NCBI GenBank assembly: GCA_903929765.1
Contig: CAIYVX010000082.1
Location: 16,974-80,973, forward strand
Direction: 5' to 3'
Length of the DNA: 64,000 bases
DNA from: an uncultured Planctomycetia bacterium
GTDB lineage: Bacteria > Planctomycetota > Phycisphaerae > FEN-1346 > JAACEH01
Made by a program: the position numbers and the translations under genes. This document shows positions 31,131 to 63,610 of this stretch, one piece after another. The number at the start of each line of letters is the position of its first letter. Position 1 is the stretch's first letter. The notes under the pieces were generated by a model. The model was given only the letters and a program-made list of their open reading frames with translations. It had not been told where the DNA came from and searched no databases.

Positions 31131-31175
31131 GGTGCCACACCTTGGCCCCCGGCTGTATGGGGGCAAGGTCTGTGG
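31131..31175 (+). repeat. REP-A hairpin repeat (divergent copy)
   Basis: GGTGCCACACCTTGGCCCCCggctgtatGGGGGCAAGGTCTGTGG has the same head (GGTGCCACAC) and the same architecture as the REP-A copies. It lies just downstream of the cytochrome c gene. Confidence 0.6.
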
Positions 31176-31221
31176 AAGGCCGGCATACTTTCCCAGAGAG
31201 AACACCCCATCGTTAACTGCT

Positions 31222-31587
31222 CTAGGAGGCCGAAGCTGCCGGTTTCGCGCTAACGGCGGAGGTTGGTTTCGCCACTGGCGGGACGCCCGCCGCCCAGGCC
31301 CGGTGCGCCCCTGTCGCCGCCAAGCCGCCGGCCAGGTTACGCAACAACGTGTCCGCGTCGTTCAGCTTCTTCGCCGCCGTCGCGCTGTCACCGGTCGTCA
31401 GAGCTTTTTTCGCCGCCGCCACATCCTGCGCCGCTTTGTCCACCGCCTGGCTGCCGCCATGACACGTGACGCAGTGGCTGACGACCTTGGGCGGCGCCGG
31501 GGCCTGGGCCGTCACAGCGTGAACCGCCGCCAGGGCCAGGAACGTCGCGGCCGCCACACCTAGGACCAAAGCAATTGTCTTACTCAT
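31222..31587 (-). CDS. Small secreted protein with one CxxCH motif (putative monoheme c-type cytochrome)
   Basis: 121 aa with signal peptide MSKTIALVLGVAAATFLALAAVHA, a single CVTCH, and an Ala-rich tail. Confidence 0.5.
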   Translation of the reverse strand: MSKTIALVLGVAAATFLALAAVHAVTAQAPAPPKVVSHCVTCHGGSQAVDKAAQDVAAAKKALTTGDSATAAKKLNDADTLLRNLAGGLAATGAHRAWAAGVPPVAKPTSAVSAKPAASAS

Positions 31588-31633
31588 CCACCGCTCCTTT
31601 TATAATGGGGTTCTCACCTCTGAATTGCCCGCT

Positions 31634-32701
31634 TCAGGATTTAGCCTTTTCCGGCGGCGCGTACCACCTCAGGCACCAGTTGCGCCAGCGCCGCTCCAGT
31701 TCCTTATAATTCAGCCCGGGATAGGCCTGCCCCAGCGCTTCTTCCCCCCGCGTGCCGTCCTTCATCAAGTCCAGAAAACGCCGGATGCCGTCCGGGTCGC
31801 GGCTCGCCAGGTAATCGATCAGGCTCATGCTCACCTCATAGGCCTGGATGTCGCTGGGCGGAAACGGTTCGGTCAGTATCCGCTGAATGGAAACGTATGG
31901 CTCCGTTCCCGCCCGCTGGTAAGCCGGAACCTCTTTCCCGACCCGCAGCCCCGGATCGATTTCCACCGTCATGTATTCCGCCAGGCCTTCATGCACCCAG
32001 AGCGGCAGGGGCACCGACTCCCGGTACATCTCCACCAGGGCGTGCGTGCTTTCGTGCACCAGCACGTCCCGGAAATGTTCGATGCCTCCCTCGGCCGGCT
32101 GATAGGTCGCAATGTGCACCAGCCGCGGCCCGCCGGCCTGCCGGGCTTCCAGAACAAAGTACCCGCGCGAGTGCGTCACCAGGTGCCGGTCGAACCGCCG
32201 GGCGAAGGCGTCCAGGGCCTCCTGCTGGGAAAAAACCACCACCAGGCACTTGCCGTCCCACAAGCGTTGCTCGGCGGGAATGGCCAGCCGAGCCATCAGC
32301 TTCGTCCGCAGATCCTCCAGCCAGACGAGGATCGCGTTTCGCATCTTCGGATCAAGATCTGAAAAAAGAATATAATTCTTCGATTCCTTCGCCACCAGCG
32401 CCGTCTGCAAGGTCCGCCGCATCTCCCCCAGCCGGTCACGCTGGCTCTGCACGATGGCCGCCTGGTCGATCTGCGGCCGCGGCGGCAAAGCCTCCGTCGC
32501 CGGCGCCGACAGAATCACCGTCGCCGAAGGCGACGCCACCGGGGCCGCCTGACCTGAGGGCGCTGCCGAACTCCAGACCACCGCGTCGGCCGCCATGCTG
32601 CCGGAGACGAACGAGAGCATGAGAACCAGGACGACTGCCGCTCCTGGAATCCTGCCGTTTATAATTTTTAATTTTTCATTTTGCATTTTGCCTTCTTCCA
32701 T
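31634..32701 (-). CDS. Secreted DUF1570-like HExxH metallopeptidase (putative)
   Basis: Signal peptide, VLVHESTHAL (HExxH) followed by WVHEGLAEY, the pattern of the DUF1570/MA-clan family described in Rhodopirellula. ATG 32701 overlaps the hflX stop (TGATG). Confidence 0.55.
   Translation of the reverse strand: MEEGKMQNEKLKIINGRIPGAAVVLVLMLSFVSGSMAADAVVWSSAAPSGQAAPVASPSATVILSAPATEALPPRPQIDQAAIVQSQRDRLGEMRRTLQTALVAKESKNYILFSDLDPKMRNAILVWLEDLRTKLMARLAIPAEQRLWDGKCLVVVFSQQEALDAFARRFDRHLVTHSRGYFVLEARQAGGPRLVHIATYQPAEGGIEHFRDVLVHESTHALVEMYRESVPLPLWVHEGLAEYMTVEIDPGLRVGKEVPAYQRAGTEPYVSIQRILTEPFPPSDIQAYEVSMSLIDYLASRDPDGIRRFLDLMKDGTRGEEALGQAYPGLNYKELERRWRNWCLRWYAPPEKAKS
32658..32690 (+). repeat. AT-rich element J (copy 1)
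   Basis: Contains AATTTTTAATTTTTCATTTT (32663-32682) and TAATTTTTCATTTTGCATTTT, both shared with copies at 59698 and 63694. It sits immediately 3' of the hflX stop. Confidence 0.7.
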
Positions 32702-34029
32702 CACGACGCCGACTTCCTCGTTTCACCCGCCAGAACTACGCCCGCGCGCTCGGCCGGGTGCAACGTAATCTCCAGCCGCGAAAACTCCCGCAGCAAAAAA
32801 TCCGTCAAATGTTGCGGCAACCGCACCTTCATCACCGTCCGGCTGCCGTCCAGTTCGCACTCCACCCGCCCGGCGTGCCGCGTCACCGCCGACTGCCACG
32901 CCCCGTCCTCGCTCGGACCCTTGATCGTCAGATCCCGCAGCGGACCGCCCAGAATCTCCAGCACCCGTTCCCGCAGCGCCTCGATCCCCCGACCCGTCAC
33001 GGCGCTGGTGAGCACGTTTTCCTGATGGCGGAATTCCAGCACGCGCAACCCGTTCTCGTCCGCCAGCAGATCCGTCTTGTTGAACACCATCAGGACCGGT
33101 TTAGTGCCGCACCCAATTTCCCGCAGCACCACGTTCACCGCCTCAATCTGCCCTTCCACGTCCGCCGCGCTTGAGTCCACGACGTGCAGCAACAAATCCG
33201 CGCTGCGGGCCTCCTCCAGCGTCGCCCGAAACGACGCCACCAGATGGTGCGGCAAGTCGCGCACAAATCCCACCGTGTCGCTCAGCAGCACCCGCAGGTT
33301 GTACGGCAAAGTCCAGGTCCGCGTCCGCGTGTCCAGCGTCGCAAACAGCTTGTCTTCCACGTAAGCATTAGCGTTCGTCAGGGCGTTCAGCAGCGACGAT
33401 TTCCCGGCGTTGGTATACCCCACCAGGCTCACCGCAAACTCTTCCTTGCGCGATTGCACCTGCCGCTCGCGCCGCTCCTGAATCTCCTGAATCCGCCGCT
33501 TCAAATCCACGATGCGCTTCCGCACCAGCCGCCGGTCGGTTTCCAACTGCGTTTCGCCCGGCCCGCGCACCCCGATGCTCCCGCCGCCCTCCAGCCGCGA
33601 CAAATGCGTCCACATCTGCCGCAAGCGCGGATAGGTGTATTCCAATTGCGCCAGTTCGACCTGAAGCTTTGCTTCCGACGTGCGCGCCCGTGTGGCAAAA
33701 ATGTCGAGGATCAATTCGCTGCGGTCCAGCACCTTGACCCCAACCGCCTTTTCGAGGTTCCTGATCTGCCCCGGCGTCAGGTCATTATCAAAAATCACCA
33801 CCGTCGCCTTCCGCGCCACGGCCAGCCGCCCGATCTCCTCGGCCTTGCCTTTGCCGACGTAAAGCCCGGCGTCGGTCATGCGACGGTTCTGCACCACCGT
33901 CCCCACCACCGCTCCGCCCGCCGCCTCCGTCAACCGCGTCAACTCCGCCAGCGGCTCTTCGCCGACATCGGCCTTGCGCTCCGGCAGAATCACCTCCACC
34001 AGAATCGCCCGTTCGCGCGCCACCGTCAT
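32701..34029 (-). CDS. hflX: GTPase HflX
   Basis: 442 aa with an HflX N-domain and G domain (LVGYTNAGKSSLLNALT, DTVGF, NKTD). Confidence 0.9.
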   Translation of the reverse strand: MTVARERAILVEVILPERKADVGEEPLAELTRLTEAAGGAVVGTVVQNRRMTDAGLYVGKGKAEEIGRLAVARKATVVIFDNDLTPGQIRNLEKAVGVKVLDRSELILDIFATRARTSEAKLQVELAQLEYTYPRLRQMWTHLSRLEGGGSIGVRGPGETQLETDRRLVRKRIVDLKRRIQEIQERRERQVQSRKEEFAVSLVGYTNAGKSSLLNALTNANAYVEDKLFATLDTRTRTWTLPYNLRVLLSDTVGFVRDLPHHLVASFRATLEEARSADLLLHVVDSSAADVEGQIEAVNVVLREIGCGTKPVLMVFNKTDLLADENGLRVLEFRHQENVLTSAVTGRGIEALRERVLEILGGPLRDLTIKGPSEDGAWQSAVTRHAGRVECELDGSRTVMKVRLPQHLTDFLLREFSRLEITLHPAERAGVVLAGETRKSAS

Positions 34030-34105
34030 CGTCGCGCGCTTCGGCTCGTTTATATTCTTTCCCAGGCTTTGTTACCCCTCAAAAAATGCAGTTATTGTAC
34101 ACCTC

Positions 34106-34134
34106 ATTCTATACCTGCCGCGCCTGACATTCAA
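34106..34134 (-). promoter_or_regulatory. Candidate hflX promoter
   Basis: Minus strand reads TTGAAT(34134-34129)-17 nt-TAGAAT(34111-34106), about 75 nt upstream of the hflX ATG. Confidence 0.45.
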
Positions 34135-34149
34135 CGCGGCTGCTTCACA

Positions 34150-34196
34150 GTGGCACGGGCATCTTGCCCGTGAGTCTTAGGGGCATCTTGCCCCTG
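34150..34196 (+). repeat. REP-B double-hairpin repeat
   Basis: GTGGCACGGGCatcttGCCCGTGAGTCttAGGGGCatcttGCCCCTG: two consecutive 7-bp hairpins. Confidence 0.85.
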
Positions 34197-34208
34197 GTTC
34201 TTCTTTTA

Positions 34209-35633
34209 TTATTGTTTCTTCTCTCCGGGTGCCACACTTTGAAGCCCCGGCTTTGCCGGGGCCAAAGTGTGTGCTTTGTCGCGCTCCTCGCTCTCCTCGA
34301 CAACCACCTTCGGCTCCGGGAACAACCACATCACCAGCCGCCCGTGATTCGACACGGCCGCAGCGGGCAATTCTACCGCCGAATTTCCGTCGAACCACCC
34401 GAACAGCACGCCCACGCCCTGCCGCACATATTGCTGCGCGACCCAGCGCATGGCCCGCCGCCTAAACGCATCCGCCGGCGCTTCCGCCGAAAACGCCGCC
34501 GCGTCGATCGAAACCGCCTCGCTCGTCGGCCGGTACACTTCGTCAACCAGCCCCATCCGCCACGCCCGGCCCGCCAGATAGCACCACGCATCCTCCAGCC
34601 GCGCCCCATCACCTAAACGCACTCCGGGCACACCCGATTGCACCCAAAACATTTTACCACCACTCGAAGGGTAGGTGCTTATATCCCACTCGCCAGCCTC
34701 AAAGGCCAGAATCAGACCAGGGGTAGCAGGAATGTTCTCCACCGACCATTCTCCGCCCTCGTGGCGATGAAGTATCACCCCTTCGTACATCACCCGGTCC
34801 GCCTCGGCCGCCACCAGCGGGCGCGGCTGCAACCGTGCCTTAAAGTACAGCGTCGCTGGACCTGCTCGGAGAGCCGTCACCGCCGCCAGATCTTCCACCA
34901 GGGCCTGACCCGTCGAGCCATCACGGGAAACGACCGAAACTGCATCCACCGAATACAGCGGTTTTTCAACCAGGGCCACGGCCCAGACCGCCCCACCCAA
35001 AGCCACAACAACCATCGCCGCGATCTTAATCCTATGCGAAAAAAGTTCTGCCACCAACGCCAGGCAAACCAGCACCGCCGTCACCGCCAGCGCCGGAATC
35101 AGAAAATGCCAAACGTCAGCCAACTGCCACGACCGCCCCTGAAACAACATCGTTGGAATCTGTCCTTTATTCTGATCCACATATCCAATCAAATCCGGCC
35201 GCACATGCGTCCGCGCCGCCAGACGGTCGAGCAAACTACCTGACGAAGCCGCACCCTGCCCTCCCAAGCTCGGCCTCAGTTTCGCAGGAGCATAGCTAAC
35301 CAACAACTTCCCTGCGGCGTCCAGCCCCTCGATGGCCGAAAGGTTCAGCGACCCGTCGAAATACCACGGCTCAAACGTCACGTCGCCCGTTTGCCGCGCC
35401 GGAATCAGCACGTCCAGCCGGTACTCGAAAAGTTGATTGGTTTTAATCCGCACCTGCCGGATGTCGGCCGCCGAAGTGTTCGCCAGTTGCAGCGCCACCG
35501 GCAGCTTCATCCCCGAAATTCCCACATCCGAGCCGGCGAAACGAACGTTCGCCCCCGTCTCAGCCCGCGCCTCCACACCCAACGCCGCCGAAAACATGAA
35601 AACCAACAGAACGACGAGCGGCAACTTTTTCAT
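34209..35633 (-). CDS. Hypothetical membrane-anchored protein
   Basis: ORF 34209..35648. ATG 35633 gives MKKLPLVVLLVFMFSAALGVEA (signal peptide) 5 nt after the upstream stop. There are two central TM segments. No recognisable domain. Confidence 0.5.
   Translation of the reverse strand: MKKLPLVVLLVFMFSAALGVEARAETGANVRFAGSDVGISGMKLPVALQLANTSAADIRQVRIKTNQLFEYRLDVLIPARQTGDVTFEPWYFDGSLNLSAIEGLDAAGKLLVSYAPAKLRPSLGGQGAASSGSLLDRLAARTHVRPDLIGYVDQNKGQIPTMLFQGRSWQLADVWHFLIPALAVTAVLVCLALVAELFSHRIKIAAMVVVALGGAVWAVALVEKPLYSVDAVSVVSRDGSTGQALVEDLAAVTALRAGPATLYFKARLQPRPLVAAEADRVMYEGVILHRHEGGEWSVENIPATPGLILAFEAGEWDISTYPSSGGKMFWVQSGVPGVRLGDGARLEDAWCYLAGRAWRMGLVDEVYRPTSEAVSIDAAAFSAEAPADAFRRRAMRWVAQQYVRQGVGVLFGWFDGNSAVELPAAAVSNHGRLVMWLFPEPKVVVEESEERDKAHTLAPAKPGLQSVAPGEKKQ
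34228..34274 (+). repeat. REP-A hairpin repeat
   Basis: GGTGCCACACTTTGaAGCCCCGGCtttGCCGGGGCcAAAGTGTGTGC is a long imperfect palindrome. It overlaps the last ~20 codons of ORF 34209..35633. Confidence 0.85.
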
Positions 35634-37662: not shown

Positions 37663-37710
37663 GGTGCCACACTTTGTCCCGACCGCCTTTTGGTCGGGCA
37701 AAGTGTGTGG
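37663..37710 (+). repeat. REP-A hairpin repeat (left flank of RAYT)
   Basis: GGTGCCACACTTTGtCCCGACCgccttttGGTCGGGcAAAGTGTGTGG, 18 nt downstream of the RAYT stop. Confidence 0.85.
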
Positions 37711-37727: not shown

Positions 37728-38264
37728 TCAGACCGGAAGAATATCCATCTCTAAACCTTCATGTCGTTCGTACCACGCGGCACTACTCCAGCGCCAGTCC
37801 GCGACCGACTCGACCAGGCCTCGCCGCACCGGATTATTGTGAATGTAATTGAGCTTCTCATAGAGTTCTTCCCGGCTTGTGATATTCCTATCATAACCAC
37901 CTCCTCCCAGCCAGAAGTGCGGCCTTCCCTGAGCGTCGGTGATCCGAGAGAGAATGGGGGCGTTCAACTCGCGCCACCGAGCGAGAACATCTTTCGAGAA
38001 CGGGCGCTTCAGGGCGTGAAGAATAGCCGTGACGGTAAAGTCAGGGAGGTCAGGTGTCAGAAGCAGGTGGAAATGCTCCGGCATAACGACCCAGGCGTAG
38101 AGGGCAAAGTCCGTCTGCCGCCGGACAAAAGACAACCGGTCTACGAAGGCGTCCTTGACGCGATCACTCTTGAACAGCGGCAACCGGCCGTAGCAGGAAC
38201 AAGTCAGGTAGCGAACATGGTTTGGCAACTCGTAGCGTTTAAGAGTTCGACGATTGTCGCTCAT
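37728..38264 (-). CDS. REP-associated tyrosine transposase (RAYT; IS200-like Y1/HUH family)
   Basis: ORF 37728..38393. The likely start is ATG 38264 (MSDNRRTLKRY...). HUH motif VMPEHFHLLL and Tyr region GGGYDRNITSREELYEKLNYIHNNPVRRGLV...WRWSS. Confidence 0.8.
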   Translation of the reverse strand: MSDNRRTLKRYELPNHVRYLTCSCYGRLPLFKSDRVKDAFVDRLSFVRRQTDFALYAWVVMPEHFHLLLTPDLPDFTVTAILHALKRPFSKDVLARWRELNAPILSRITDAQGRPHFWLGGGGYDRNITSREELYEKLNYIHNNPVRRGLVESVADWRWSSAAWYERHEGLEMDILPV

Positions 38265-38323
38265 GACGGGGCATCTCGACCAATCGGCACGAAGTTTATT
38301 CGGAAGATTTACTTGCGGTCCGA

Positions 38324-38370
38324 ACACACACTTTGCCCGGCATACTGCCGCCGGGACAAAGTGTGGCACC
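38324..38370 (-). repeat. REP-A hairpin repeat (right flank of RAYT, inverted)
   Basis: ACACACACTTTGcCCGGCatactgcCGCCGGGaCAAAGTGTGGCACC is the reverse-complement orientation of the other REP-A copies. Confidence 0.85.
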
Positions 38371-39618: not shown

Positions 39619-39666
39619 GTGGCACGGGCGTCCCGCCCGTGAGTCCCACGGCCATCTTGGCCGTGG
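39619..39666 (+). repeat. REP-B double-hairpin repeat
   Basis: GTGGCACGGGCgtcccGCCCGTGAGTCcCACGGCCatcttGGCCGTGG, in the spacer between the GT gene and GH57. Confidence 0.85.
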
Positions 39667-39687
39667 TTGTTTTTGTTTTTTGCGCCA

Positions 39688-42273: not shown

Positions 42274-42318
42274 TTCACCCCTCTCCCTTGAGGGGAGAGG
42301 GTAGGGTGAGGGTGTTGC
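42274..42318 (+). repeat. Family C repeat, variant (45 nt)
   Basis: TTCACCCCTCTCCCTTGAGGGGAGAGGGTAGGGTGAGGGTGTTGC. Its exact reverse complement occurs at 48782-48826. Confidence 0.9.
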
Positions 42319-46233: not shown

Positions 46234-46271
46234 GGGTGGCATGGCGGCGTCGTTTGCCGCCATGTTTCGCC
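46234..46271 (+). repeat. Family D hairpin repeat
   Basis: GGGTGGCATGGCGGCgtcgtttGCCGCCATGTTTCGCC, near-identical to 58075-58113. Confidence 0.85.
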
Positions 46272-46300
46272 AGTGCCCGTTCTTCGGGTGCCGCCGTTTC

Positions 46301-46349
46301 TTCACCCCTCTCCCTCGGGAGAGGGTGGCCCGAAGGGCCGGGTGAGGGG
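46301..46349 (+). repeat. Family C repeat
   Basis: TTCACCCCTCTCCCtcGGGAGAGGGTGGCCCgaaGGGCCGGGTGAGGGG. The same element lies inside valS at 56210-56269. Confidence 0.85.
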
Positions 46350-46488
46350 TTAGCTCACCACCTCAAAAACTTCACCAGAACGCCATCATACGCGAGGACA
46401 TGCCCTGCCCGCGCCCTAAGCCCGACCAAAGTATTCCGAATCGCCCCATTTTTCAAGTAAAAACGCTGTGCGTACAGCCTTTGTTGTT

Positions 46489-46544: not shown

Positions 46545-46595
46545 GTGGCACGGGCTTCCCGCCCGTGAGTCGCAGGGGCATCTTGCCCCTGTGCC
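46545..46595 (+). repeat. REP-B double-hairpin repeat
   Basis: GTGGCACGGGCttcccGCCCGTGAGTCgCAGGGGCatcttGCCCCTGTGCC. About 75 nt including flanks is nearly identical to 61598-61675. Confidence 0.9.
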
Positions 46596-46672: not shown

Positions 46673-46740
46673 CCCGCGCCATCGCCCTCCACTCCGCTCT
46701 CCCCCAGCCGCGAAGCGGCGAAAGTTTTTAGCCGGGCGGC
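46673..46740 (+). repeat. Family I 68-nt direct repeat (copy 1)
   Basis: CCCGCGCCATCGCCCTCCACTCCGCTCTCCCCCAGCCGCgaaGCGGCGAAAGTTTTTAGCCGGGCGGC has 5 mismatches over 68 nt against 46907-46974. Confidence 0.85.
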
Positions 46741-46906
46741 GTCAGCCCCCGGTCCCCGCCGCAAACACATTCTTCTTCTTTTTCTTCTTATTTCTCTTCT
46801 CAGCCGCAGCGCGGCGTCTGATAATAACCACGCGGCGCAAGCCCGTGGTTCCCAACGCGCCGACCCGGCTTTTTTCTTCTTCTTTTTCTTTTCCCAGCCC
46901 CCTCCC

Positions 46907-47920: not shown

Positions 47921-47922
47921 AT

Positions 47923-53647: not shown

Positions 53648-54133
53648 ATGACCAAAACTTCTTTCACCATCCGCCCCGCCACTCCCGCCGACGCCGACGC
53701 CGTCGTCGCCATGTGGCAGATCATGGTGGACCAGCACCAGGCTTACGATCGCCTGCGCTGGCGCATGAAGCCCAACGCCCCCGCCCTTTGGCGCAAGTTC
53801 TTTCTGGAAGTCCTGGCCAAAAAAGATTCCTTCGCCCTGGTCGCCGTCAACGCCACTGGTCAACCCATTGGCTATCTCGTCGCCAACATCGCCGCTCCGC
53901 CGCCGATCGTGGCCATCCGCTCCCGCGGCGATATCGGCGATCTCTTTGTCCGAAAAGAATATCGCCGCCACGGTCTCGGCCGCCGACTAATGAACCACGC
54001 CGTCAAAATCATGAAGAGCCGCGGCGCCGAATATATCAGCCTCTACGTTGCCGCCTCGAACCGCAGCGCCGTCCGTTTCTACAAAAACCTCGGCCTGAAA
54101 CCGCTCGTGCTGCAGATGTGCAATAAGTTATAA
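53648..54133 (+). CDS. GNAT-family N-acetyltransferase
   Basis: 161 aa with acetyl-CoA motif A region VRKEYRRHGLGRRLMNHAV and ...SAVRFYKNLGLKP. Confidence 0.8.
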   Translation: MTKTSFTIRPATPADADAVVAMWQIMVDQHQAYDRLRWRMKPNAPALWRKFFLEVLAKKDSFALVAVNATGQPIGYLVANIAAPPPIVAIRSRGDIGDLFVRKEYRRHGLGRRLMNHAVKIMKSRGAEYISLYVAASNRSAVRFYKNLGLKPLVLQMCNKL

Positions 54134-54139
54134 TGAAAC

Positions 54140-54174
54140 GTGCCACGGCGGGTCTTGTCCCGCCGTGCGAATGC
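54140..54174 (+). repeat. Family E hairpin repeat (upstream of valS)
   Basis: GTGCCACGGCGGGtcttgtCCCGCCGTGCGAATGC. A second copy in the same orientation is at 58120-58153. Confidence 0.85.
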
Positions 54175-54207
54175 GGGCCGACGCTCGCTAAAAGGATAAT
54201 TGTCCCG

Positions 54208-57200
54208 ATGACCCAACCCGAAACCAACTCCACCAACCCCACCGACCTTCCCACCCAATACGACCCCAAGCTCTTCGAAAAGGAAGTTTACGCCTTCTGG
54301 GAATCTCATAACTATTTCCACGCCGACCCCGCGCGCGGCGGAAAACCCTACGCCATAGCCATCCCGCCCCCCAACGTCACTGCCGCCCTCCACCTCGGCC
54401 ACGCCCTCAACAACACCCTTCAGGACATCCTCGTCCGCTGGCGCCGCCAGCAGGGCTACAACACCCTCTGGATGCCCGGCACCGACCACGCCGGCATCGC
54501 CACCCAGGCCGTCATCGAAAAACGTCTCCTCGCCAACGAAGGCCTGCGCCGCAAAGACCTCGACCCCGACCCCGCCGTCGCCCGCACCAAGTTCGTCGCC
54601 CGCGTTCAGGCCTGGAAAGACGAGTACGAAGCCCGCATCCTCGGCCAGCTCAAAGCCATGGGCTGCTCCTGCGACTGGGACCGCACCCGCTTCACCATGG
54701 ACGAAACCTGCGCCGCCGCCGTCCGCGAAGCCTTTTTCCGCCTCTTCAAAGACGGCCTCATCTATCGCGGCAAACGCCTCGTCAACTGGGACCCCGCCAC
54801 CCAGACCGTCCTCGCCGACGACGAAGTCGAACACGAAACCGTCCAGGGAAATTTCTATTACCTCCGCTACCCGCTGGCTGAAGCCGTTGCTTTACCCAGT
54901 GACACGGGCATCTTGCCCGTGAGTCCCACGGGCGTCCCGCCCGTGGCCGCCGTTTCTTCTTCACCCAGTGGCACGGGCGTCCCGCCCGTGAGTGCCACGG
55001 GCATCTTGCCCGTGGAAGACTTGCCTGTAATCAAGCGTCAGGGTGCCAACCTGCCTCACTGGACTCAATCCGGCGCAACCTATGCCATCACGTTCCGGTT
55101 GGCCGATTCTCTCCCCGCCCAAGTCATTGAATCATGGAAGCATCACCGGGAAGAAATCGAACAAAGAGCCAACTCCCAAGGCCGCAAGATGACCTGGCAG
55201 GAGCGTAAGGAACTCCACCAACTGTACGAATCCCGCATCGACAGCATGCTGAACACCGGTCTTGGGGCGTGTTATCTCAACAATCCGGAAGTAGCCGAAA
55301 TCGTCCAGGACGCACTGAAACATTTCCACGGCGAGCGATACGAACTGATCGCCTGGTCACTCATGCCCAACCACATCCATGCCGTTCTCCGTCCTCTGGG
55401 AGAACACCATCTCGCGGACATCATCCACTCCTGGAAGTCCTTCACGGCTAAGCAAGCCAACAAAATTCTTGGACGAGAAGGACAGTTCTGGATGGAGGAA
55501 TACTACGACCACCTGATTCGCGACGAAGAGGATTTTGGCCATGCGGTAATGTACGCGATCAGCCATCCGGAGCGCGCCGGCCTGGCCGACTGGCCGTGGG
55601 TCGGACTGCAAAAAACGGCACAGGGGCAAGATGCCCCTGCGACTCACGGGCAAGATGCCCGTGCCACTGTTATAACACACATCACCGTCGCCACCACCCG
55701 ACCCGAAACCATGCTCGGCGACACCGCCGTCGCCATGAACCCCCGCGACCCCCGCGCCGCCGCTCTCGTCGGCCAGATGGTTCGCCTCCCCATCGTCGGC
55801 CGCCTCATCCCCATCATCGCCGACGAACACGTCGTCCTCCCCAACCCCGAAGGCGACGAAAAAGCCCGCTTCTCCACCGGCTTCCTCAAAGTCACACCCG
55901 CCCACGACCCCAACGACTGGGACATCGGCCAGCGCCACAAACTCCCGGCCATCAACGTCATGGCCCCCGACGGCTCAATCTCCGACAAGCACGGCTGGAC
56001 CGACTGGGACGCCGTCAAAAATCCTGATGTCGAAAAATTCATTGGCCTCGACCGCTTCATAGCCCGAAAGAAGATCGTCGACTGGTTCGGCGAAAACAAT
56101 CTTCTCGAAGAAGTCCGCCCCTACGCCCACGAAGTCGGCCACTCCTACCGCAGCCATGTCCCCATCGAACCCTACCTCTCCGACCAGTGGTTCATCGCCG
56201 TGAAAAAGCCGTTTCTTCTTCACCCCTCTCCCTCGGGAGAGGGTGGCCCTTCAGGGCCGGGTGAGGGGTTGAGGCCCTTGCCCGTTCCGACCGCGCCCGA
56301 ACTGATCCCCGGCACCGACGTGCCAGTTAATTCTTTAGCCGGCTTGGCCATCAAGCCGCTCCTCGACGGCAAACTCAAATTCGTCCCCGAGCGCTACGCC
56401 CGCAACTACCAGAACTGGCTCGAAAACCTTCGCGACTGGCCCATCTCCCGCCAACTCTGGTGGGGACACCGAATTCCAGTGTGGCAAGGAATCACTGAAT
56501 TTGGATCGAAGGTGTTTGAGGGCAAGGACACAGCAAAATCTCCATTCGGAATAGCCGGCGTAGAAGGAATACACATACAGCACAGAGATGAGGCTGGAAA
56601 ACTGGGACTGTATGCCTCGGTACCGCCCGGCCATCCAGACAAGGAAAAGAAACTGGAGGAGGCTGGCCTAACCCGCGACCCCGACGTCCTCGACACCTGG
56701 TTCTCTTCCGGCCTCTGGCCCATCTCAACCCTCGGTTGGCCGGAACAAACCGACGCGCTGAAATTCTATTACCCCACCTCCGTCCTCTGCACCGCCCGCG
56801 AAATCATCACCCTCTGGGTCAGCCGCATGGTCATGTTCGGCGAATATTTCCAGCACGACCTCCCCTTCCGCACCGTCTACATCCACGCCATGATTCAGGA
56901 CGGCGAAGGCCGCAAAATGTCCAAGAGCCTCGGCAACGGCATCGACCCCCTCGACATCATCGACTCTCACGGGGCCGACGCCATGCGCTTCACCATCGCC
57001 GCCATGACCACCGAAACTCAGGACGTCCGCATGCCGGTCGAAACCCTCACCCTCCGCGACGGCCGCACCGCCAACTCCAGCCCCAAGTTCGACCTCGGCC
57101 GCAACTTCTGCAACAAGCTCTGGAACGCCTCCCGCTTCGCCTTCATGAACCTCGCCGAACTTTCCCCCGAGCCGTTCGACCGCGCAAAAATGCTCCTCGA

Positions 57201-58053
57201 AGACCGCTGGATTCTCTCCCGCCTCACCACCACCGTCGAAGCCGCCACACAGGCCCTCGAAAAGTTCCAGTTCCACGACGCCACCGACGTGATCTACTCT
57301 TTCTTCTGGAACGATTTCTGCGACTGGTACCTCGAAATCACCAAGCCGCGCATGCGCGACGCCGCCACCAGAGCCGTCCCCCAACGCATCCTCGCCTACG
57401 CCCTCGACCGTCTCCTGCGGCTCCTCCACCCCTTCGTCCCGCACATTACCGAGCACCTCTGGACCCACTTCGCCCGCCTCGTCCCCGACCGCTCGCTCGA
57501 CTCTGCGGCCCCCGCCCCACCCGCCGAAGCCTGCATCATCGCCCTTTGGCCCGAGCCGGTCGCCGCTTTTTACGCGCCCCAGGCCGAAACCGATTTCGCC
57601 CTCGTCCAGGCCGTCATCCGCGCCATCCGCAACATCCGTTCGCGCATGAACATCGCCCCGCGCGTCCCGCTCCGCGCCGTCATCCGCTCGAGCGCCGCCG
57701 CCACCGCCCGCCTCTCCGCCGCCGCCGACACCATCCGCCACCTCGCCGCCCTCGAATCTCTTGAGGCCGACCCTGCCGCCGAAAAGCCCAAAGCCTCCGC
57801 CGCCGAAATCGTCGAAGGCCTGGAAGTCTTCGTCCCCCTCGCCGGCGTCATCGACCTCGCCACCGAGCGCGACCGCCTCGCCAAACTCTCGGCCGAGAAG
57901 GATAAGGCCCTCGACAGCGTCCGCAAAAAACTCTCGAACGAAAACTTCGTCGCCCGCGCCAAGCCCGAAATCGTCGCCAGCGAACGCGACCGCGCCGCCA
58001 AGCTCGAATCCGAACTCGCCGCCCTCACAGCCAACATGAAAGATTTGGAATAG
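54208..58053 (+). CDS. valS: Valyl-tRNA synthetase carrying in-frame mobile-element insertions
   Basis: ORF 54133..58053. ATG 54208 gives MTQPETN...PTQYDPKLFEKEVYAFWE. HIGH (PPNVTAALHLGHA), ATTRPETMLGDTAV, DWPISRQLWWGHRIP, KMSKS (RKMSKSLGN) and a coiled-coil C-terminus are all present in one frame. 1281 codons because of the inserts at 54899-55667 and about 56200-56300. Confidence 0.9.
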   Translation: MTQPETNSTNPTDLPTQYDPKLFEKEVYAFWESHNYFHADPARGGKPYAIAIPPPNVTAALHLGHALNNTLQDILVRWRRQQGYNTLWMPGTDHAGIATQAVIEKRLLANEGLRRKDLDPDPAVARTKFVARVQAWKDEYEARILGQLKAMGCSCDWDRTRFTMDETCAAAVREAFFRLFKDGLIYRGKRLVNWDPATQTVLADDEVEHETVQGNFYYLRYPLAEAVALPSDTGILPVSPTGVPPVAAVSSSPSGTGVPPVSATGILPVEDLPVIKRQGANLPHWTQSGATYAITFRLADSLPAQVIESWKHHREEIEQRANSQGRKMTWQERKELHQLYESRIDSMLNTGLGACYLNNPEVAEIVQDALKHFHGERYELIAWSLMPNHIHAVLRPLGEHHLADIIHSWKSFTAKQANKILGREGQFWMEEYYDHLIRDEEDFGHAVMYAISHPERAGLADWPWVGLQKTAQGQDAPATHGQDARATVITHITVATTRPETMLGDTAVAMNPRDPRAAALVGQMVRLPIVGRLIPIIADEHVVLPNPEGDEKARFSTGFLKVTPAHDPNDWDIGQRHKLPAINVMAPDGSISDKHGWTDWDAVKNPDVEKFIGLDRFIARKKIVDWFGENNLLEEVRPYAHEVGHSYRSHVPIEPYLSDQWFIAVKKPFLLHPSPSGEGGPSGPGEGLRPLPVPTAPELIPGTDVPVNSLAGLAIKPLLDGKLKFVPERYARNYQNWLENLRDWPISRQLWWGHRIPVWQGITEFGSKVFEGKDTAKSPFGIAGVEGIHIQHRDEAGKLGLYASVPPGHPDKEKKLEEAGLTRDPDVLDTWFSSGLWPISTLGWPEQTDALKFYYPTSVLCTAREIITLWVSRMVMFGEYFQHDLPFRTVYIHAMIQDGEGRKMSKSLGNGIDPLDIIDSHGADAMRFTIAAMTTETQDVRMPVETLTLRDGRTANSSPKFDLGRNFCNKLWNASRFAFMNLAELSPEPFDRAKMLLEDRWILSRLTTTVEAATQALEKFQFHDATDVIYSFFWNDFCDWYLEITKPRMRDAATRAVPQRILAYALDRLLRLLHPFVPHITEHLWTHFARLVPDRSLDSAAPAPPAEACIIALWPEPVAAFYAPQAETDFALVQAVIRAIRNIRSRMNIAPRVPLRAVIRSSAAATARLSAAADTIRHLAALESLEADPAAEKPKASAAEIVEGLEVFVPLAGVIDLATERDRLAKLSAEKDKALDSVRKKLSNENFVARAKPEIVASERDRAAKLESELAALTANMKDLE
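54899..54946 (+). repeat. REP-B double-hairpin repeat (inside valS, left copy 1)
   Basis: GTGACACGGGCatcttGCCCGTGAGTCcCACGGGCgtcccGCCCGTGG, translated in the valS frame as SDTGILPVSPTGVPPV. Confidence 0.85.
54968..55014 (+). repeat. REP-B double-hairpin repeat (inside valS, left copy 2)
   Basis: GTGGCACGGGCgtcccGCCCGTGAGTGcCACGGGCatcttGCCCGTG, translated as SGTGVPPVSATGILPV. Confidence 0.85.
55617..55667 (-). repeat. REP-B double-hairpin repeat (inside valS, right copy, inverted)
   Basis: GGCACAGGGGCaagatGCCCCTGcGACTCACGGGCaagatGCCCGTGCCAC is the reverse complement of the REP-B consensus, translated as TAQGQDAPATHGQDARAT. Confidence 0.85.
56210..56269 (+). repeat. Family C repeat with shared leader, inside valS
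   Basis: GCCGTTTCTTCTTCACCCCTCTCCCtcGGGAGAGGGTGGCCCttcaGGGCCGGGTGAGGGG, the same element as the intergenic copy at 46301-46349. It is read in frame as PFLLHPSPSGEGGPSGPGEG. Confidence 0.85.
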
Positions 58054-58074: not shown

Positions 58075-58113
58075 GGGTGGCATGGCGGCCGTCGTTTGCC
58101 GCCATGTTTCGCC
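58075..58113 (+). repeat. Family D hairpin repeat
   Basis: GGGTGGCATGGCGGCcgtcgtttGCCGCCATGTTTCGCC, 22 nt after the valS stop. Lies between convergent valS and the response regulator gene, so it may act as a terminator. Confidence 0.85.
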
Positions 58114-58119: not shown

Positions 58120-58153
58120 GTGCCACGGCGGGCTTGCCCCGCCGTGCGAATGC
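58120..58153 (+). repeat. Family E hairpin repeat (downstream of valS)
   Basis: GTGCCACGGCGGGcttgcCCCGCCGTGCGAATGC, in the same orientation as 54140-54174. Confidence 0.85.
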
Positions 58154-59630: not shown

Positions 59631-59677
59631 GTGGCACGGGCGTCTCGCCCGTGAGTCGCAGGGGCATCTTGCCCCTG
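59631..59677 (+). repeat. REP-B double-hairpin repeat
   Basis: GTGGCACGGGCgtctcGCCCGTGAGTCgCAGGGGCatcttGCCCCTG, in the 116-nt spacer between the kinase and regulator genes. Confidence 0.9.
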
Positions 59678-59696
59678 CTTACTGTTTTTGTTTCTT

Positions 59697-59730
59697 CAAT
59701 TTTTAATTTTTCATTTTTAACTTTTAATTT
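59697..59730 (+). repeat. AT-rich element J (copy 2)
   Basis: AATTTTTAATTTTTCATTTT at 59698-59717. It contains the stop codon of the histidine kinase gene. Confidence 0.7.
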
Positions 59731-61475
59731 CCCTTTTCCTCACGGCTCGCCCACCGCGTCGCAATCCGCACCACGAACTCCGCCCCGCCCGTCGCCCGGT
59801 TCCGCGCCAGCAGCGTCCCGCCCTGCTTTTCCACCAGTTCCTTGCAAATCGCCAGGCCCAGCCCCGTCCCCTGCCCCGCCTCTTTGGTCGAGAAGAACGG
59901 CTCGAAAATATGGTCGAGCGCCTCGTGCGACAACCCCGGCCCGTCGTCCGCCACGGAGATATCCACCGCCCCGTCGATGCACACCGCCCGCACCTGCACC
60001 CGCCCGCCCTGGGGCTGCGCCTCGATCGCGTTCTTGATCAGGTTCGTAAACACCTGATACAGTGAACTTGACTCCATCTCCGGCACGTTGTCCGCAATTT
60101 CCAACTCCAGCGCCACGCCCCGTTCCTGGGCCTTGCCCGACAGCGACGTGATCGCGTCCTCCATCGCCGCCCGCAGCGTCCCGTCGCTCGAAGCCGCCAC
60201 CGTCGAACGCGAAAATTCCAGCAACTCGCTGATGATCCGCACCATCCGCATCAGCCCGCCGCGCGCCGACTCGACGTACCCCACCGCCCGCTGATCCGGC
60301 GTATCCTTCAGCACGCGCACCGCCAGCCCCAGATACCGCAGAATCCCGTCCAGCGGATTATTCAACTCATGTGCAACTTTTGCCGCCAGCTTCCCCACCG
60401 CCGCCAGCCGCTCGCTCGCCGCCAGCCGGTTCTCCATCGACACGTCGCGCGTCACGTCCTCGATCGTCATAATCCCGCCCACCGCCGCCTCGCGCTTGCC
60501 CACCAGCGGCGAAGCCGACAGCCGCAGCACCAGCGGCGCCGCGCCCGTTTTCCCCTGCCCCTGGCTCACCGCGTCAAACGTGCAGACCTGACCCAGCCGC
60601 ACCACGTCACGGAAGATCGCCTGGTAATCCCCGTACCGCGCCGCTATGTCCGTCCGCGCCAAACCATGCAGCACGTTCCGGTCGTCCGGAAAAATCCGTT
60701 CCGCCTCCCGGTTGCGGAAGACGACCGCGAACGACCGGTCGAAGACCACCACCCCCATCGGTATCGATTCAAATATGTTTTCGTTGAACGTCTTGACCTG
60801 GACCAGCTCCGCCGAGGCCCGCGCAAGCTCCTTCGTCGCCTCCACAATCCGCGACCGCAGATCGTAGCTGAAACATTTGAACTGCGTCGCGCTGTCCACC
60901 AGCGCCGCCGAAAAATTCGCCACCACCCCGAGCGCCGCCTGGTCCGCCGTCCCCAGCTTGCGACCGGGAATCGTCGAGGCCACCACCAGAATCCCCACCA
61001 GACGCTCCCCGGTCATCATCGGCACGGCCGCCAGCGCCGTCAGGTGCCCGAACGACAGCCCGAGGCTTTCCTCCGGATCCCCGAGGCACAGCCCCTCGTT
61101 CCGCTCGATCAGAACTTCCGTCACCGGCCGGCTCGCGAAAAAGTCCAGCGTCTGCAGCATGTGCCCCTCGCCCAACGTCGCCCCGGGCTTCAGGGCCTGC
61201 TCCGCATCGTCCCACAACGCCACCGCGCCGCACTGGCAATCCACGAGCGCCGCCGAACGCTGCAGCACCGTCTGCATGAGTTCCGCAGGCTCCGCCACCG
61301 CCGTCAGCTCCGCCCCCAGAGCCGCCAGCGCCGCCAGAATCCGGCCGTCAGGTTGCCCCCGCGAAACATCGGACGTTGTCTTTTTTCTCGCCAAAGCCAA
61401 ACCCCTCGTCAATACGGCTCTTCCGATTCGAAGTTCCTCAAAGATCCTCCGGCCCGCCATGTTGCCATTCCACAT
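59724..61475 (-). CDS. Sensor histidine kinase (GAF + PAS + HisKA + HATPase_c), soluble
   Basis: 583 aa with H-box KVAHELNNPLDGI, N/G boxes (NLIKNAIEA, DDGPGL, GTGLGLAI), N-terminal GAF-like and PAS-like segments, and no obvious TM. The start could be ATG 61460. Confidence 0.85.
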   Translation of the reverse strand: MWNGNMAGRRIFEELRIGRAVLTRGLALARKKTTSDVSRGQPDGRILAALAALGAELTAVAEPAELMQTVLQRSAALVDCQCGAVALWDDAEQALKPGATLGEGHMLQTLDFFASRPVTEVLIERNEGLCLGDPEESLGLSFGHLTALAAVPMMTGERLVGILVVASTIPGRKLGTADQAALGVVANFSAALVDSATQFKCFSYDLRSRIVEATKELARASAELVQVKTFNENIFESIPMGVVVFDRSFAVVFRNREAERIFPDDRNVLHGLARTDIAARYGDYQAIFRDVVRLGQVCTFDAVSQGQGKTGAAPLVLRLSASPLVGKREAAVGGIMTIEDVTRDVSMENRLAASERLAAVGKLAAKVAHELNNPLDGILRYLGLAVRVLKDTPDQRAVGYVESARGGLMRMVRIISELLEFSRSTVAASSDGTLRAAMEDAITSLSGKAQERGVALELEIADNVPEMESSSLYQVFTNLIKNAIEAQPQGGRVQVRAVCIDGAVDISVADDGPGLSHEALDHIFEPFFSTKEAGQGTGLGLAICKELVEKQGGTLLARNRATGGAEFVVRIATRWASREEKGN

Positions 61476-61565
61476 CGATTATGTCGGCAGGAAACAACCT
61501 CGGAATGATGCAAAAATACAACATTTTCCGCTGTTAGTCAAGTCGCCGCCCAGCTTTTCTTGCTT

Positions 61566-61598
61566 TTGAAGCCCCCTGCACTGCTGGGGGATGCTGTT
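61566..61598 (+). repeat. Family G hairpin repeat
   Basis: TTGAAGCCCCCTGcactgCTGGGGGATGCTGTT. Confidence 0.85.
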
Positions 61599-61612
61599 GT
61601 TGCCGCTTCACC

Positions 61613-61663
61613 GTGGCACGGGCGTCCCGCCCGTGAGTCGCAGGGGCATCTTGCCCCTGTGCC
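61613..61663 (+). repeat. REP-B double-hairpin repeat
   Basis: GTGGCACGGGCgtcccGCCCGTGAGTCgCAGGGGCatcttGCCCCTGTGCC. Confidence 0.9.
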
Positions 61664-61694
61664 GTTGCCGTTGTTTCACCGCCAATCCTTAACT

Positions 61695-61731
61695 GTGAGT
61701 GGCATGGTCCGGCGCAGACGGGCCATGAAAG
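61695..61731 (+). repeat. Family H hairpin repeat
   Basis: Core ATGGTCCGgcgcagaCGGGCCATGAAAG (61704-61731). Confidence 0.8.
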
Positions 61732-61801
61732 GAGGTCGCCGAAAGTGGAACTGTTTCTGTTGTTTCTGTTGTTTTTGCCGTTCCTGAAGTCTGGCGTCAC
61801 T

Positions 61802-61833
61802 GTCCTCAACCGTCCTCAGAACGTCCTCAGAAC
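61802..61833 (+). promoter_or_regulatory. Three tandem ~11-nt direct repeats abutting the purE -35
   Basis: GTCCTCAACC / GTCCTCAGAAC / GTCCTCAGAAC with ~one-helical-turn periodicity (10- and 11-nt units), ending 1 nt before TTGACA. A candidate transcription-factor binding array. Confidence 0.3.
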
Positions 61834-61834
61834 G

Positions 61835-61864
61835 TTGACACGCCCCACCGCCCCCGCCTATACT
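61835..61864 (+). promoter_or_regulatory. Candidate purE-mtnA promoter
   Basis: TTGACA(61835-61840)-18 nt-TATACT(61859-61864), 42 nt upstream of the purE ATG, which has an AAGGAG SD. Confidence 0.5.
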
Positions 61865-61905
61865 GTGCCGATTCTCAATCGGACCTTTTTGTAAGGAGCC
61901 AATCC

Positions 61906-62409
61906 ATGCCCCGCAGCGACAAACCCCAAGTCAGCATCGTCCTCGGCAGCGACAGCGACCTGCCCGCTATGCAGGAAGCCACCGAAATTCTCAACGACTT
62001 CGCCGTCGATTACGAGGTCCGCATCATCAGCGCCCACCGCTCGCCCGCCCTCGCCCACCAGTACGCCTGCACCCTCGAAGAGCGCGGCGTGGAAGTCGTC
62101 ATCGCCGCCGCCGGCGGCGCCGCCCATCTCGCCGGCGTCGTCGCCAGTTTCACCCCCCTGCCCGTCATCGGCGTCCCGATTGCCACCGCCCTGGCCGGCG
62201 GACTCGACTCGCTCCTCGCCATGGTTCAAATGCCCTCCGGCGTCCCCGTCGCCACCGTCGCCGCCGGCAAGAGCGGCCCGAAAAACGCCGCCCTCCTCGC
62301 CGTCCAGATTCTCGGCGTCAAACTCCCGGCCATGCGAAAAAAAATCAGCGACTACAAGGCGGCCCTGGCCCGCAAGATCGAAGACAAAGACAAACAGTTC
62401 CGAGGATAA
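61906..62409 (+). CDS. purE: 5-(carboxyamino)imidazole ribonucleotide mutase
   Basis: VSIVLGSDSDLPAMQEA...ISAHRSP...AAGGAAHLAGVVA...PVIGVP is canonical PurE. Confidence 0.92.
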   Translation: MPRSDKPQVSIVLGSDSDLPAMQEATEILNDFAVDYEVRIISAHRSPALAHQYACTLEERGVEVVIAAAGGAAHLAGVVASFTPLPVIGVPIATALAGGLDSLLAMVQMPSGVPVATVAAGKSGPKNAALLAVQILGVKLPAMRKKISDYKAALARKIEDKDKQFRG

Positions 62410-62410
62410 C

Positions 62411-63460
<1,050 letters not shown>

Positions 63461-63475
63461 TGCCGTTGTTTTTTT

Positions 63476-63500
63476 GTAGGGACAGGGCTCTGCCCTGTCC
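63476..63500 (+). repeat. Family F (GTAG-headed) REP
   Basis: GTAGGGACAGGGCtcTGCCCTGTCC, identical to 46490-46514, 16 nt after the mtnA stop. Confidence 0.85.
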
Positions 63501-63520
63501 GGCAGTTGCTGTTGTTTCTT

Positions 63521-63562
63521 TCGTAGGGGCAGAGTTCATCTCTGCCCTGCTGTTTCTTTTTT
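63521..63562 (+). terminator. Family F REP acting as a likely intrinsic terminator of mtnA
   Basis: TCGTAGGGGCAGAGttcatCTCTGCCCTGC is followed by TGTTTCTTTTTTT: an 8-bp GC-rich stem plus a T-run on the mtnA strand. Confidence 0.45.
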
Positions 63563-63566
63563 TCCG

Positions 63567-63610
63567 GGTGCCACACTTTGAAGCCCCGGCCCTGCCGGGG
63601 CCAAAGTGTG
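63567..63610 (+). repeat. REP-A hairpin repeat
   Basis: GGTGCCACACTTTGaAGCCCCGGCcctGCCGGGGCcAAAGTGTG, near-identical to 34228-34274. Confidence 0.9.

Follow-up and report, generated by a model that had tools for sequence, protein, structure and literature searches.

Is a transposase domain that lies inside the gene of an essential enzyme still a gene of its own, or has it become part of that enzyme? This question is raised by a stretch of 64,000 nucleotides from an uncultured Planctomycetia bacterium (assembly GCA_903929765.1, contig CAIYVX010000082.1, positions 16,974 to 80,973; hereafter the window, numbered from its first letter). The window encodes two REP-associated tyrosine transposases (RAYTs), each bracketed by hairpins of its own family of repetitive extragenic palindromic (REP) sequences, REP-A and REP-B. 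One of them, RAYT-1, is found between genes, and the other, RAYT-2, within valS, the gene of valyl-tRNA synthetase (ValRS). Our analysis indicates that the window probably contains two REPtrons (RAYT genes with flanking REP hairpins) of different lifestyles: RAYT-1/REP-A is free-standing, and RAYT-2/REP-B is intragenic and translated in valS.

RAYT-2 lies in the reading frame of valS

The host gene of the RAYT-2 cassette, valS (54208..58053, + strand), encodes a product of 1281 amino acids. Its frame is open without a stop codon from 54133 to 58053, and the 1306-residue version that starts at 54133 begins within a repeat hairpin. Exact look-ups of the product with either of two start codons retrieved no record, but a public prediction on an 86.6-kb contig, recovered by homology search (P0001, 100% match), starts at 54208 and has an identical 1281-residue product. 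Pfam matches to tRNA-synt_1 (405.6 bits), Anticodon_1 and Val_tRNA-synt_C were found, and the ValRS motifs HLGH, KMSKS, TTRPET and TPAHD are intact in this cassette-bearing protein.

The 5′ arm of the cassette consists of two REP-B doublets, an outer copy at 54899..54946 (+), translated in the valS frame as SDTGILPVSPTGVPPV, and an inner copy at 54968..55015 (+), translated as SGTGVPPVSATGILPV. They are followed by RAYT-2 itself (55027..55611, +), a TnpA_REP-like Y1/HUH domain, and by an inverted REP-B doublet at 55617..55667 (−), translated as QGQDAPATHGQDARAT. RAYT-2 shares both strand and frame with valS, and the cassette has neither a stop codon nor a start of its own; RAYT-2 is not a free-standing single-copy gene. 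The sequence-only reading of this window had placed RAYT-2 inside valS. The location holds, but what occupies it is not a transposase gene that merely lies there; it is an open cassette, apparently translated as part of ValRS.

Alignment with Thermus thermophilus ValRS (1gax) defined the insertion site. Residues 13-223 of the product aligned to chain residues 2-204, and residues 492-666 to chain residues 210-364. The cassette (residues 224-491, 268 residues) replaces 1gax residues 205-209, a surface loop of five residues at the point of entry into the CP1 editing domain. The 3′ REP-B doublet of valS is nearly identical to copies dispersed in the window, even in bases past the hairpins: the five intergenic REP-B copies are 94-96% identical to it over 47 nucleotides, and the bases beyond the hairpins are also shared with two of the five.

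A further repeat of a third family (CCCTCTCCCTCGGGAGAGGG..GGCCC..GGGCC; TTCTTCACCCCTCTCCCTCGGGAGAGGGTGGCCC..GGGCCGGGTGAGGGG) lies in frame in valS at 56207..56275 (+) and encodes LLHPSPSGEGGPSGPGEG. It is inserted between 1gax residues 364 and 366 and is near-identical to an intergenic copy at 46290-46350; related copies at 42279 and 48799 have the opposite orientation. No transposase for this family was found within the window. Both this insert and the REP-B arms match intergenic copies and have no counterpart in 1gax, and are thus palindromic repeats inserted in frame within a gene.

RAYT-2 resembles TnpA_REP in sequence and fold

RAYT-2 matched Pfam Y1_Tnp with 26.7 bits (gathering cut-off 23), and the best match of its domain profile in PDB was 4er8, the structure of TnpA_REP (E = 1.9e-8). 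An AlphaFold model (pLDDT 80, pTM 0.73) also retrieved 4er8 first in a Foldseek search of PDB (E = 9e-7), followed by the TnpA proteins of ISDra2 and IS608. Both the alignment and the model contain an extra helical segment of ~60 residues after the first strand. An LPHW motif is located at 55051, the HUH motif (NHIH, in PNHIH) at 55369-55380 and MYAISHP at 55549-55569. The HIH residues align to H59 and H61 of 4er8, and the Tyr of MYAISHP to the catalytic Y115. YYDH was also considered as the catalytic Tyr motif and was ruled out, as it aligns to FWEH of 4er8.

Neither RAYT of the window is an IS200-type TnpA: the NCBIfam model NF033573 (transpos_IS200) gave only 17.4 and 20.6 bits for the two, with a cut-off of 55. 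There is one copy of each enzyme in the window and no TnpB, which places both outside the IS200/IS605 family.

Cassettes at the same site in other valyl-tRNA synthetases

Planctomycetota yielded at least 118 ValRS clusters with a cassette in this position. Among the 120 best ValRS homologues, 118 had 245-347 residues between the YPL and TTRPET motifs. Identity of the carriers to the query is 52-63%; Sedimentisphaerales, Phycisphaerales and Anaerobaca lacustris are among them. An empty site, with 31 residues between YPL and TTRPET and no REP remnant, was found in homologues P0082 and P0100. In the 118 carriers, the motifs LPHW, FRL, MPNHVH, HSWKS, EYYDHLIR and Y..NP are at least 90% conserved; the HUH histidines are present in all 118 and the catalytic Tyr in 117.

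We compared substitution rates between cassettes of the same type. Rough dN/dS values were 0.09-0.16 for the domain and 0.15-0.23 for the downstream part of ValRS, showing that the RAYT-2-type domain in ValRS is under purifying selection at the protein level. The domain had a lower G+C content at third codon positions (GC3) than the part of valS upstream of the cassette in 14 of 14 loci, and than the part downstream in 13 of 14.

P0100, a ValRS of 1323 residues whose CP1 site is empty, has a cassette of the same kind elsewhere, at residues ~880-1110, after the anticodon-binding domain. Its flanks read SGTGVPPVCPMGVSPM and HGQDAHGTHGRDARAT. This C-terminal cassette is an independent in-frame insertion in valS.

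In several homologues, the flanks themselves are expanded. Arrays of 5-7 tandem REP hairpins occur within the valS coding sequence in the 3′ flank of locus L014 (L014:10282-10500) and, as seen in the protein flanks, in P0103 and P0070. In translation such arrays read RGQDGRDT.., SSMGVPPMS (seven times) and DRGQDACDTKE (six times). Thus, expansion of REP hairpins inside valS alters the length of a linker in an essential enzyme.

Whole cassettes are exchanged between valS alleles

If the cassette had evolved together with its host, closely related ValRSs would carry closely related domains. Among 118 pairs of ValRSs that are at least 90% identical outside the cassette, the domains were less than 65% identical in 63 pairs and at least 75% identical in 51, with only four pairs in between. 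Domains of the high group are ~90% identical and those of the low group ~55%. Conversely, 63 pairs had domains more alike than their ValRS hosts.

The exchange could be followed at the DNA level in two syntenic loci, L085 and L086, which carry different domain types (types 5 and 13, respectively, defined below). Their DNA is 90-98% identical over valS and neighboring genes with two exceptions. The first is the cassette, which is only ~50-65% identical, with sharp breakpoints at the REP flanks. L085 retains the outer REP doublet common to L086, and has a type-5 doublet inside it and an extra GTAGCATGGGC hairpin outside; such nested REP layers are what successive invasions would leave. These data show that closely related valS alleles have traded entire cassettes.

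The second exception is a REP-free hypervariable island in valS (L085:12219-12570 versus L086:3780-4070). It is located between LWWGHxIPVW and DPDVLDTWFSS, corresponds to ~56488-56664 in the window (ValRS residues 761-819) and has no visible repeat hairpins.

Flanking hairpins and pairing of RAYTs with REP families

All 14 valS loci available as DNA have hairpin doublets on both flanks of the domain, oriented so that the head faces outward. Four kinds of head occur (GTGGC, GTGTC, GTGAC and GTAGC), the loops have the form (G/A/T)TC(C/T)N, and the stems differ by lineage (CACGGGC, CGAGGGC, CGCGGGC, CATGGGC or CACGGCC). In an alignment of 32 flank hairpins, 98.7% of cells pair, five of seven pairs have changes on both sides, and the covariation score was reached by none of 500 shuffles. 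Hairpins of 25 nucleotides were identical at 24-25 positions between loci of the same type (L008/L009/L085 and L010/L086), at a domain dS of ~1 or more. This identity in spite of saturated adjacent synonymous sites suggests that the DNA itself is selected or homogenized.

Clustering revealed four main types of ValRS domain, each paired with its own translated REP flank. Type 3 (27 sequences) has CGTGFQPV on the 5′ side, HGQDARAT on the 3′ side and the stem CACGGGC; type 5 (31 sequences) has RGEGVPPL, QGRDALAT and GAGGGC; and type 13 (33 sequences) has VAGVPPA, RGRDARDT and GCGGGC. Type 8 (five sequences, including that of the window) is flanked by S(M/T)GVPPM..TGILPV and QGQDAP.THG.DA.AT, with the stem CA(C/T)GGGC.

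Pairing extends beyond valS. Whether the domain is embedded or free-standing, it is bracketed by inverted GT(A/G)G-type hairpins in nearly all of 80 related loci (see below). For the 41 loci that passed a strict hairpin definition, the mean Hamming distance between left and right stems of the same locus was 0.51, compared with 2.08 between loci (reached in none of 5000 permutations), and stem distance tracked RAYT domain distance (Spearman 0.43).

In the window, the one-to-one arrangement of two RAYTs and two REP families had been taken as direct support for cognate specificity. The stem statistics and the type-specific ValRS flanks support such cognate pairing; for the window itself, 64 kb is too short a stretch to establish that RAYT-2 and the dispersed REP-B copies belong together one to one, and RAYT-2 is likely the cognate enzyme of these copies, judging from the fit of its flanks. 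Since genomes with several REP families have been reported to carry family-specific REPtrons (Di Nocera 2013, PMC3733652), the pairing observed here is a confirmation rather than a new finding.

The same domain occurs in many host proteins

At least 584 relatives of the RAYT-2 domain were retrieved when each species was represented by one genome in the scan, and the best 80 of them were examined. The closest match among GTDB representatives was at 66-67%. About 44 of the 80 sit inside long open frames. Free-standing relatives have a stop codon directly after the domain, and embedded ones do not. By Pfam, the hosts are ValRS (11 loci), LeuRS, DinG-like helicase (5), IspG/GcpE (7), MetH (2), FabZ/FabA-like dehydratase (6), Type ISP (4) and Type IIG (2) restriction enzymes, CarB, DnaE, Ddl, TatD, a helicase with a NOV_C domain and a DUF5107-TPR protein. 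The organisms belong to Planctomycetota, Verrucomicrobiota, Acidobacteriota, Hydrogenedentota, Armatimonadota and other groups.

The domain profile was also searched against 1.84 billion cluster representatives, which gave 23,873 hits with E <= 1e-3 and 1,870 with E <= 1e-30. Among the best 150 representatives, 62 are at least 400 residues long. These long proteins match 61 Pfam families and add AlaRS, chorismate-binding enzymes, GH38 and XseA to the hosts. Both HUH histidines are invariant in all 62, as is a Tyr shortly upstream of a nearly invariant Asn-Pro, which we take to be the Tyr motif.

At locus L018 (L018:9122-10576), the Y1 domain does not interrupt a loop but forms a C-terminal fusion with a TatD-type DNase, and a stop codon follows directly after the domain. 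This fusion may be an intermediate between the free-standing and embedded forms.

RAYT-1 and the dispersed repeats of the window

RAYT-1 (37728..38264, − strand) is a gene for 178 residues with its own start and stop, located in an intergenic gap that separates a gene of glycogen-debranching type from one of GH57. An REP-A hairpin lies on its 3′ side (37663..37710, +) and an inverted one on its 5′ side (38323..38370, −; head 38357-38370). The product matched Pfam Y1_Tnp (25.1 bits, gathering cut-off 23) and passed the NCBIfam model NF047646 (REP_Tyr_transpos) with 100.3 bits (cut-off 80). Its HUH motif is PEHFH (in MPEHFHLL) and its Tyr motif NYIHNNP, and its best sequence match in PDB is 4er8, E. 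coli TnpA_REP. Its GC3 is 0.63, compared with ~0.83 in neighboring genes. All 1774 homologues detected are free-standing proteins of ~175-300 residues from Planctomycetota/Phycisphaerae. RAYT-1 together with REP-A is a conventional free-standing REPtron.

The two RAYTs are 28% identical over 107 residues, and no third Y1 homologue was found among the six-frame open reading frames of the window. These results bear out the sequence-only reading in that it described two divergent Y1/HUH homologues, each bracketed by inverted copies of its own REP family (REP-A at 37663/38370; REP-B at 54899, 54968/55667), and no transposase in the window for its other repeat families. Its account of both families as dispersed, REP-A as a single long hairpin and REP-B as a tandem double hairpin, was likewise correct, as detailed here.

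The REP-A head GGTGCCACACTTTG had five matches in the window versus 0.37 expected, and none of 100 shuffles reached five. Besides the two copies at RAYT-1, there are three dispersed ones, at 31131..31178 (+; degenerate, with one mismatch in the head), 34228..34275 (+; adjoining the REP-B copy of 34150) and 63567..63613 (+). REP-A forms one long hairpin whose outer stem (CACACTTTG / CAAAGTGTG) is constant across copies, and whose inner stem differs from copy to copy with compensating changes.

REP-B forms two short G+C-rich hairpins in tandem. Its head GTGGCACGGGC had 13 matches with at most one mismatch, versus 3.6 expected (reached by none of 100 shuffles). Exact heads are at 34150, 39619, 46545, 54968, 59631 and 61613 on the + strand and at 55657-55667 on the − strand; the copy at 54899 has one mismatch. 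Five copies beyond the RAYT-2 flanks are intergenic: 34150..34196, 39619..39667 (second hairpin stem CACGGCC), 46545..46592, 59631..59679 and 61613..61660, all on the + strand. When folded as single-stranded DNA, REP copies had z-scores of -4.5 to -6 relative to shuffles (-2.6 for the copy at 31131). The exact REP-B doublet was found in a metagenome scan on three unrelated short contigs, which have nothing else in common with the window and no further RAYT context.

The dispersed REP-A, REP-B and GTAG-headed copies (31131, 34150, 34228, 39619, 46494, 46545, 53507, 59631, 61613, 63480, 63527 and 63567) all have their heads on the + strand, regardless of the direction of neighboring genes, and the GC skew of the + strand is negative throughout the window (-0.04 to -0.26). 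Head orientation and skew together suggest a replication-strand bias, as expected for single-strand transposition.

Two additional hairpin families occur in the window: CCACGGCGGG.CTTG.CCCGCCGTGCGAATGC at 54145-54166 and 58124-58146, and GGTGGCATGGCGGC.GTCGTTTGCCGCCATG at 46241-46263 and 58083-58104. One copy lies just 5′ of the true valS start, within the spurious N-terminal extension of the 1306-residue frame, and another just 3′ of the valS stop. In addition, an Rfam match to the Acido-Lenti-1 small RNA (46706-46752, −; 41.8 bits, gathering score 37) is situated in a gene-poor stretch at 46.2-48.3 kb, where four repeat families cluster.

Discussion

The structure of the RAYT-2 cassette, with REP hairpins, a Y1/HUH nuclease domain and inverted REP hairpins in one frame open from end to end, suggests how such an element could live within a gene. 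The domain would be made within the ValRS polypeptide, and the peptides encoded by the REPs, rich in Gly, Pro, Ser, Thr and Asp, would serve as linkers. RAYT-2 may be an active single-strand DNA nuclease/transferase that recognizes its own REP type, for which the co-variation of domain type and stem offers indirect support; it would then relate to the dispersed REP-B copies as E. coli TnpA_REP does to its REPs. Residence in an essential gene would supply expression without signals of its own and guard against deletion, as in a non-splicing intein. Cassettes could turn over via their REP flanks, whether through single-strand transposition or through homologous recombination of a REPtron with a pair of REPs inside the gene.

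We weighed four alternatives to this translated intragenic REPtron. The one that fares best holds that ValRS acquired a Y1 domain long ago and now uses it for its own function, for example in nucleic-acid binding or regulation, with the repeats as linker remnants and REP-B spread by some other enzyme. Such an exaptation would account for the wide retention of the cassette at one site of an essential enzyme and for the purifying selection on the domain. It would also fit the rarity of dispersed flank-REP copies near valS in most other genomes: there were mostly few or none within 10 kb of valS, shared 12-mers were mostly at chance level, and in L085 and L086 a search within 10 kb found none. 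However, near-identical valS alleles carry domains that are only ~55% identical, and the cassette has therefore been exchanged rather than co-evolving with ValRS. The flank hairpins remain palindromic, showing compensatory changes and stems specific to each type, and their conservation far exceeds that of adjacent synonymous sites. The same kind of domain and flank recurs across dozens of host families unrelated to one another, some ValRS alleles have an empty site, and the catalytic HUH and Tyr residues are retained. Exaptation thus appears unlikely.

A second possibility is that the cassette is taken out after transcription or translation, as an intein, a group I intron or an IStron would be, so that mature ValRS lacks it. 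The host range, with DnaE, helicases, aminoacyl-tRNA synthetases and other essential enzymes, is indeed intein-like. However, Pfam detected no Hint or other intein domain in the 1306-residue product, and no splice-junction residues were found, which argues against membership in the inteins. Likewise, an Rfam scan of the window at gathering thresholds gave only two tRNAs and the Acido-Lenti-1 RNA, with no group I or group II intron and no other RNA family in valS, and the element is not an IStron by this measure. The flanks are translated REP arrays of variable length, not conserved splice junctions. Finally, selection at the amino-acid level implies that the domain is read in the valS frame, although later removal would still be compatible with it. 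We regard removal as very unlikely.

Strict vertical inheritance, in which a single cassette entered valS and diverged rapidly with no horizontal exchange, would explain why almost all carriers share the insertion site, and the identity of the domain does correlate with that of the host part, if weakly (Pearson 0.33). It does not explain why domain identity is bimodal at fixed host identity, why 63 pairs have domains more similar than their hosts, or why a syntenic pair 90-98% identical has sharp DNA breakpoints and nested REP layers. This scenario is accordingly most improbable.

The last alternative is that RAYT-2 is a RAYT gene of the usual sort, expressed on its own and only recently inserted into valS, so that the two REPtrons differ only in family. 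It draws on the inverted flanks and the dispersed REP-B copies, which a normal REPtron also has, and on a GC3 (0.67 versus 0.81 for valS) that suggests foreign origin, but it is scarcely credible given a cassette in the strand and frame of valS without start or stop, cassettes in this position in at least 118 ValRS clusters only 52-63% identical to the window ValRS, and the contrast with free-standing relatives, which stop right after the domain.

Several points weigh against the translated intragenic REPtron itself. The proportion of 118 carriers among 120 homologues is biased toward cassette-bearing proteins, which gain from the ranking of hits by bit score. The dN/dS values are rough, since dS is ~1-1.5 and thus near saturation (saturated for some pairs). 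The 32 hairpins of the covariation analysis were chosen by eye at the flanks, which favors pairing, and the loci of the permutation tests are phylogenetically related, so that these results overstate independence and significance. Few dispersed flank REPs were seen at most other valS loci, and REP spreading is therefore no constant companion of the cassette; another RAYT of the RAYT-2 type could exist elsewhere in the genome of the window. Translation as a ValRS fusion and nuclease activity are predictions from sequence, and RAYT-2 scored 70.0 bits with NF047646, below the cut-off of 80. In Y1 transposases, the position four residues after the Tyr helps bind the metal ion and is presumed to be the third metal ligand. 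It is Asn in 116 of the 118 ValRS-embedded copies, and only the window copy has His there; His can also bind metals, and the window RAYT-2 may be impaired or have altered or reduced activity.

Beyond this locus, we propose that translated intragenic REPtrons form a distinct, so far undescribed class of selfish elements that colonize surface loops of essential proteins in several phyla. They would be expressed only through the host gene, lost only by precise deletion and replaced horizontally via their REP flanks, as analogues of inteins that do not splice. The arguments for and against this broader proposal are, in our view, evenly balanced. A search of the searchable full-text literature, whose coverage leaves out most subscription journals, gave no report of a whole REPtron or RAYT translated in frame within a host gene.

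RAYTs are regarded as domesticated, single-copy and vertically inherited, and their expression, persistence and movement have posed questions since 2010. On expression and persistence, one concrete answer would come from a RAYT found only as a translated insert within an essential enzyme: its expression is borrowed from the host gene, and it is lost only by precise deletion. That such elements move is shown by cassettes swapped between near-identical valS alleles. If this interpretation is correct, RAYTs are not purely vertically inherited, domesticated genes.

The ValRS series also represents a natural experiment on RAYT/REP specificity, with one host gene, one site and at least four enzyme types that have their own stems; it is a cleaner comparison than the two-system comparison within the window proposed by the sequence-only reading. 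Cassette-bearing proteins are annotated simply as valine--tRNA ligase, and Y1 proteins of great length were dismissed as errors in earlier surveys; the class has therefore been hidden in existing data. Moreover, ValRS, DnaE, IspG and other proteins tolerate inserts of 250-350 residues at defined loops, which is useful for domain-insertion engineering.

Comparison with known systems

REPtrons, in which RAYT/TnpA_REP genes are flanked by REP or BIME hairpins, are known from E. coli (yafM) and Pseudomonas (Nunvar 2010; Bertels and Rainey 2011; Ton-Hoang 2012, PMC3333891; Messing 2012, PMC3479197, with 4er8; Di Nocera 2013, PMC3733652; Quentin 2018, PMC6006769). Both RAYTs of the window share with them the Y1/HUH fold, the HUH and Tyr motifs, inverted hairpins with a 5′ GT(A/G)G-type head and a flank hairpin family dispersed between genes; RAYT-1/REP-A fits this description fully. 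A GTGG variant of the head has been found in Opitutus terrae (PMC3733652). In contrast to known REPtrons, RAYT-2 has no gene of its own, and the whole REPtron is one frame, apparently translated inside valS. REPtrons were described as single-copy, vertically inherited and unable to self-propagate (PMC3733652), whereas the cassettes reported here pass from one closely related allele to another, have a second site of insertion in valS and reside in many host genes.

Palindromes in frame within genes are also known. Ogata (2000) reportedly described repeats of this kind, the Rickettsia palindromic elements (RPEs). RPEs and intragenic REPs lie in functional and often essential proteins (tRNA synthetases, helicases, DnaE and UvrA), to which they add 20-80 residues. 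The REP-B arms, like the insert at 56207-56275, belong to this kind of repeat. In-frame intragenic REPs with GTAG/CGTC heads were reported in tRNA synthetases, helicases, uvrA and dnaE (PMC3733652). The difference is that RPEs and intragenic REPs are repeats alone, whereas here the presumed mobilizing enzyme belongs to the in-frame insert.

Like the cassette, inteins are selfish in-frame inserts in conserved essential proteins (DnaE, helicases and synthetases) that encode a nuclease domain, and they have a patchy distribution, empty-site alleles and horizontal transfer between alleles of the same site. Inteins carry a LAGLIDADG or HNH nuclease; the nuclease of the cassette is of the Y1 HUH type, and the insert presumably stays in the mature protein. 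IS200/IS605 elements and IStrons share with the cassette a homologous Y1 TnpA, subterminal hairpins and single-strand 'peel and paste' as the likely mechanism. IStrons also render insertions into genes harmless, which they achieve by RNA splicing, whereas in the case of translated cassettes the same end would be reached by keeping the reading frame open.

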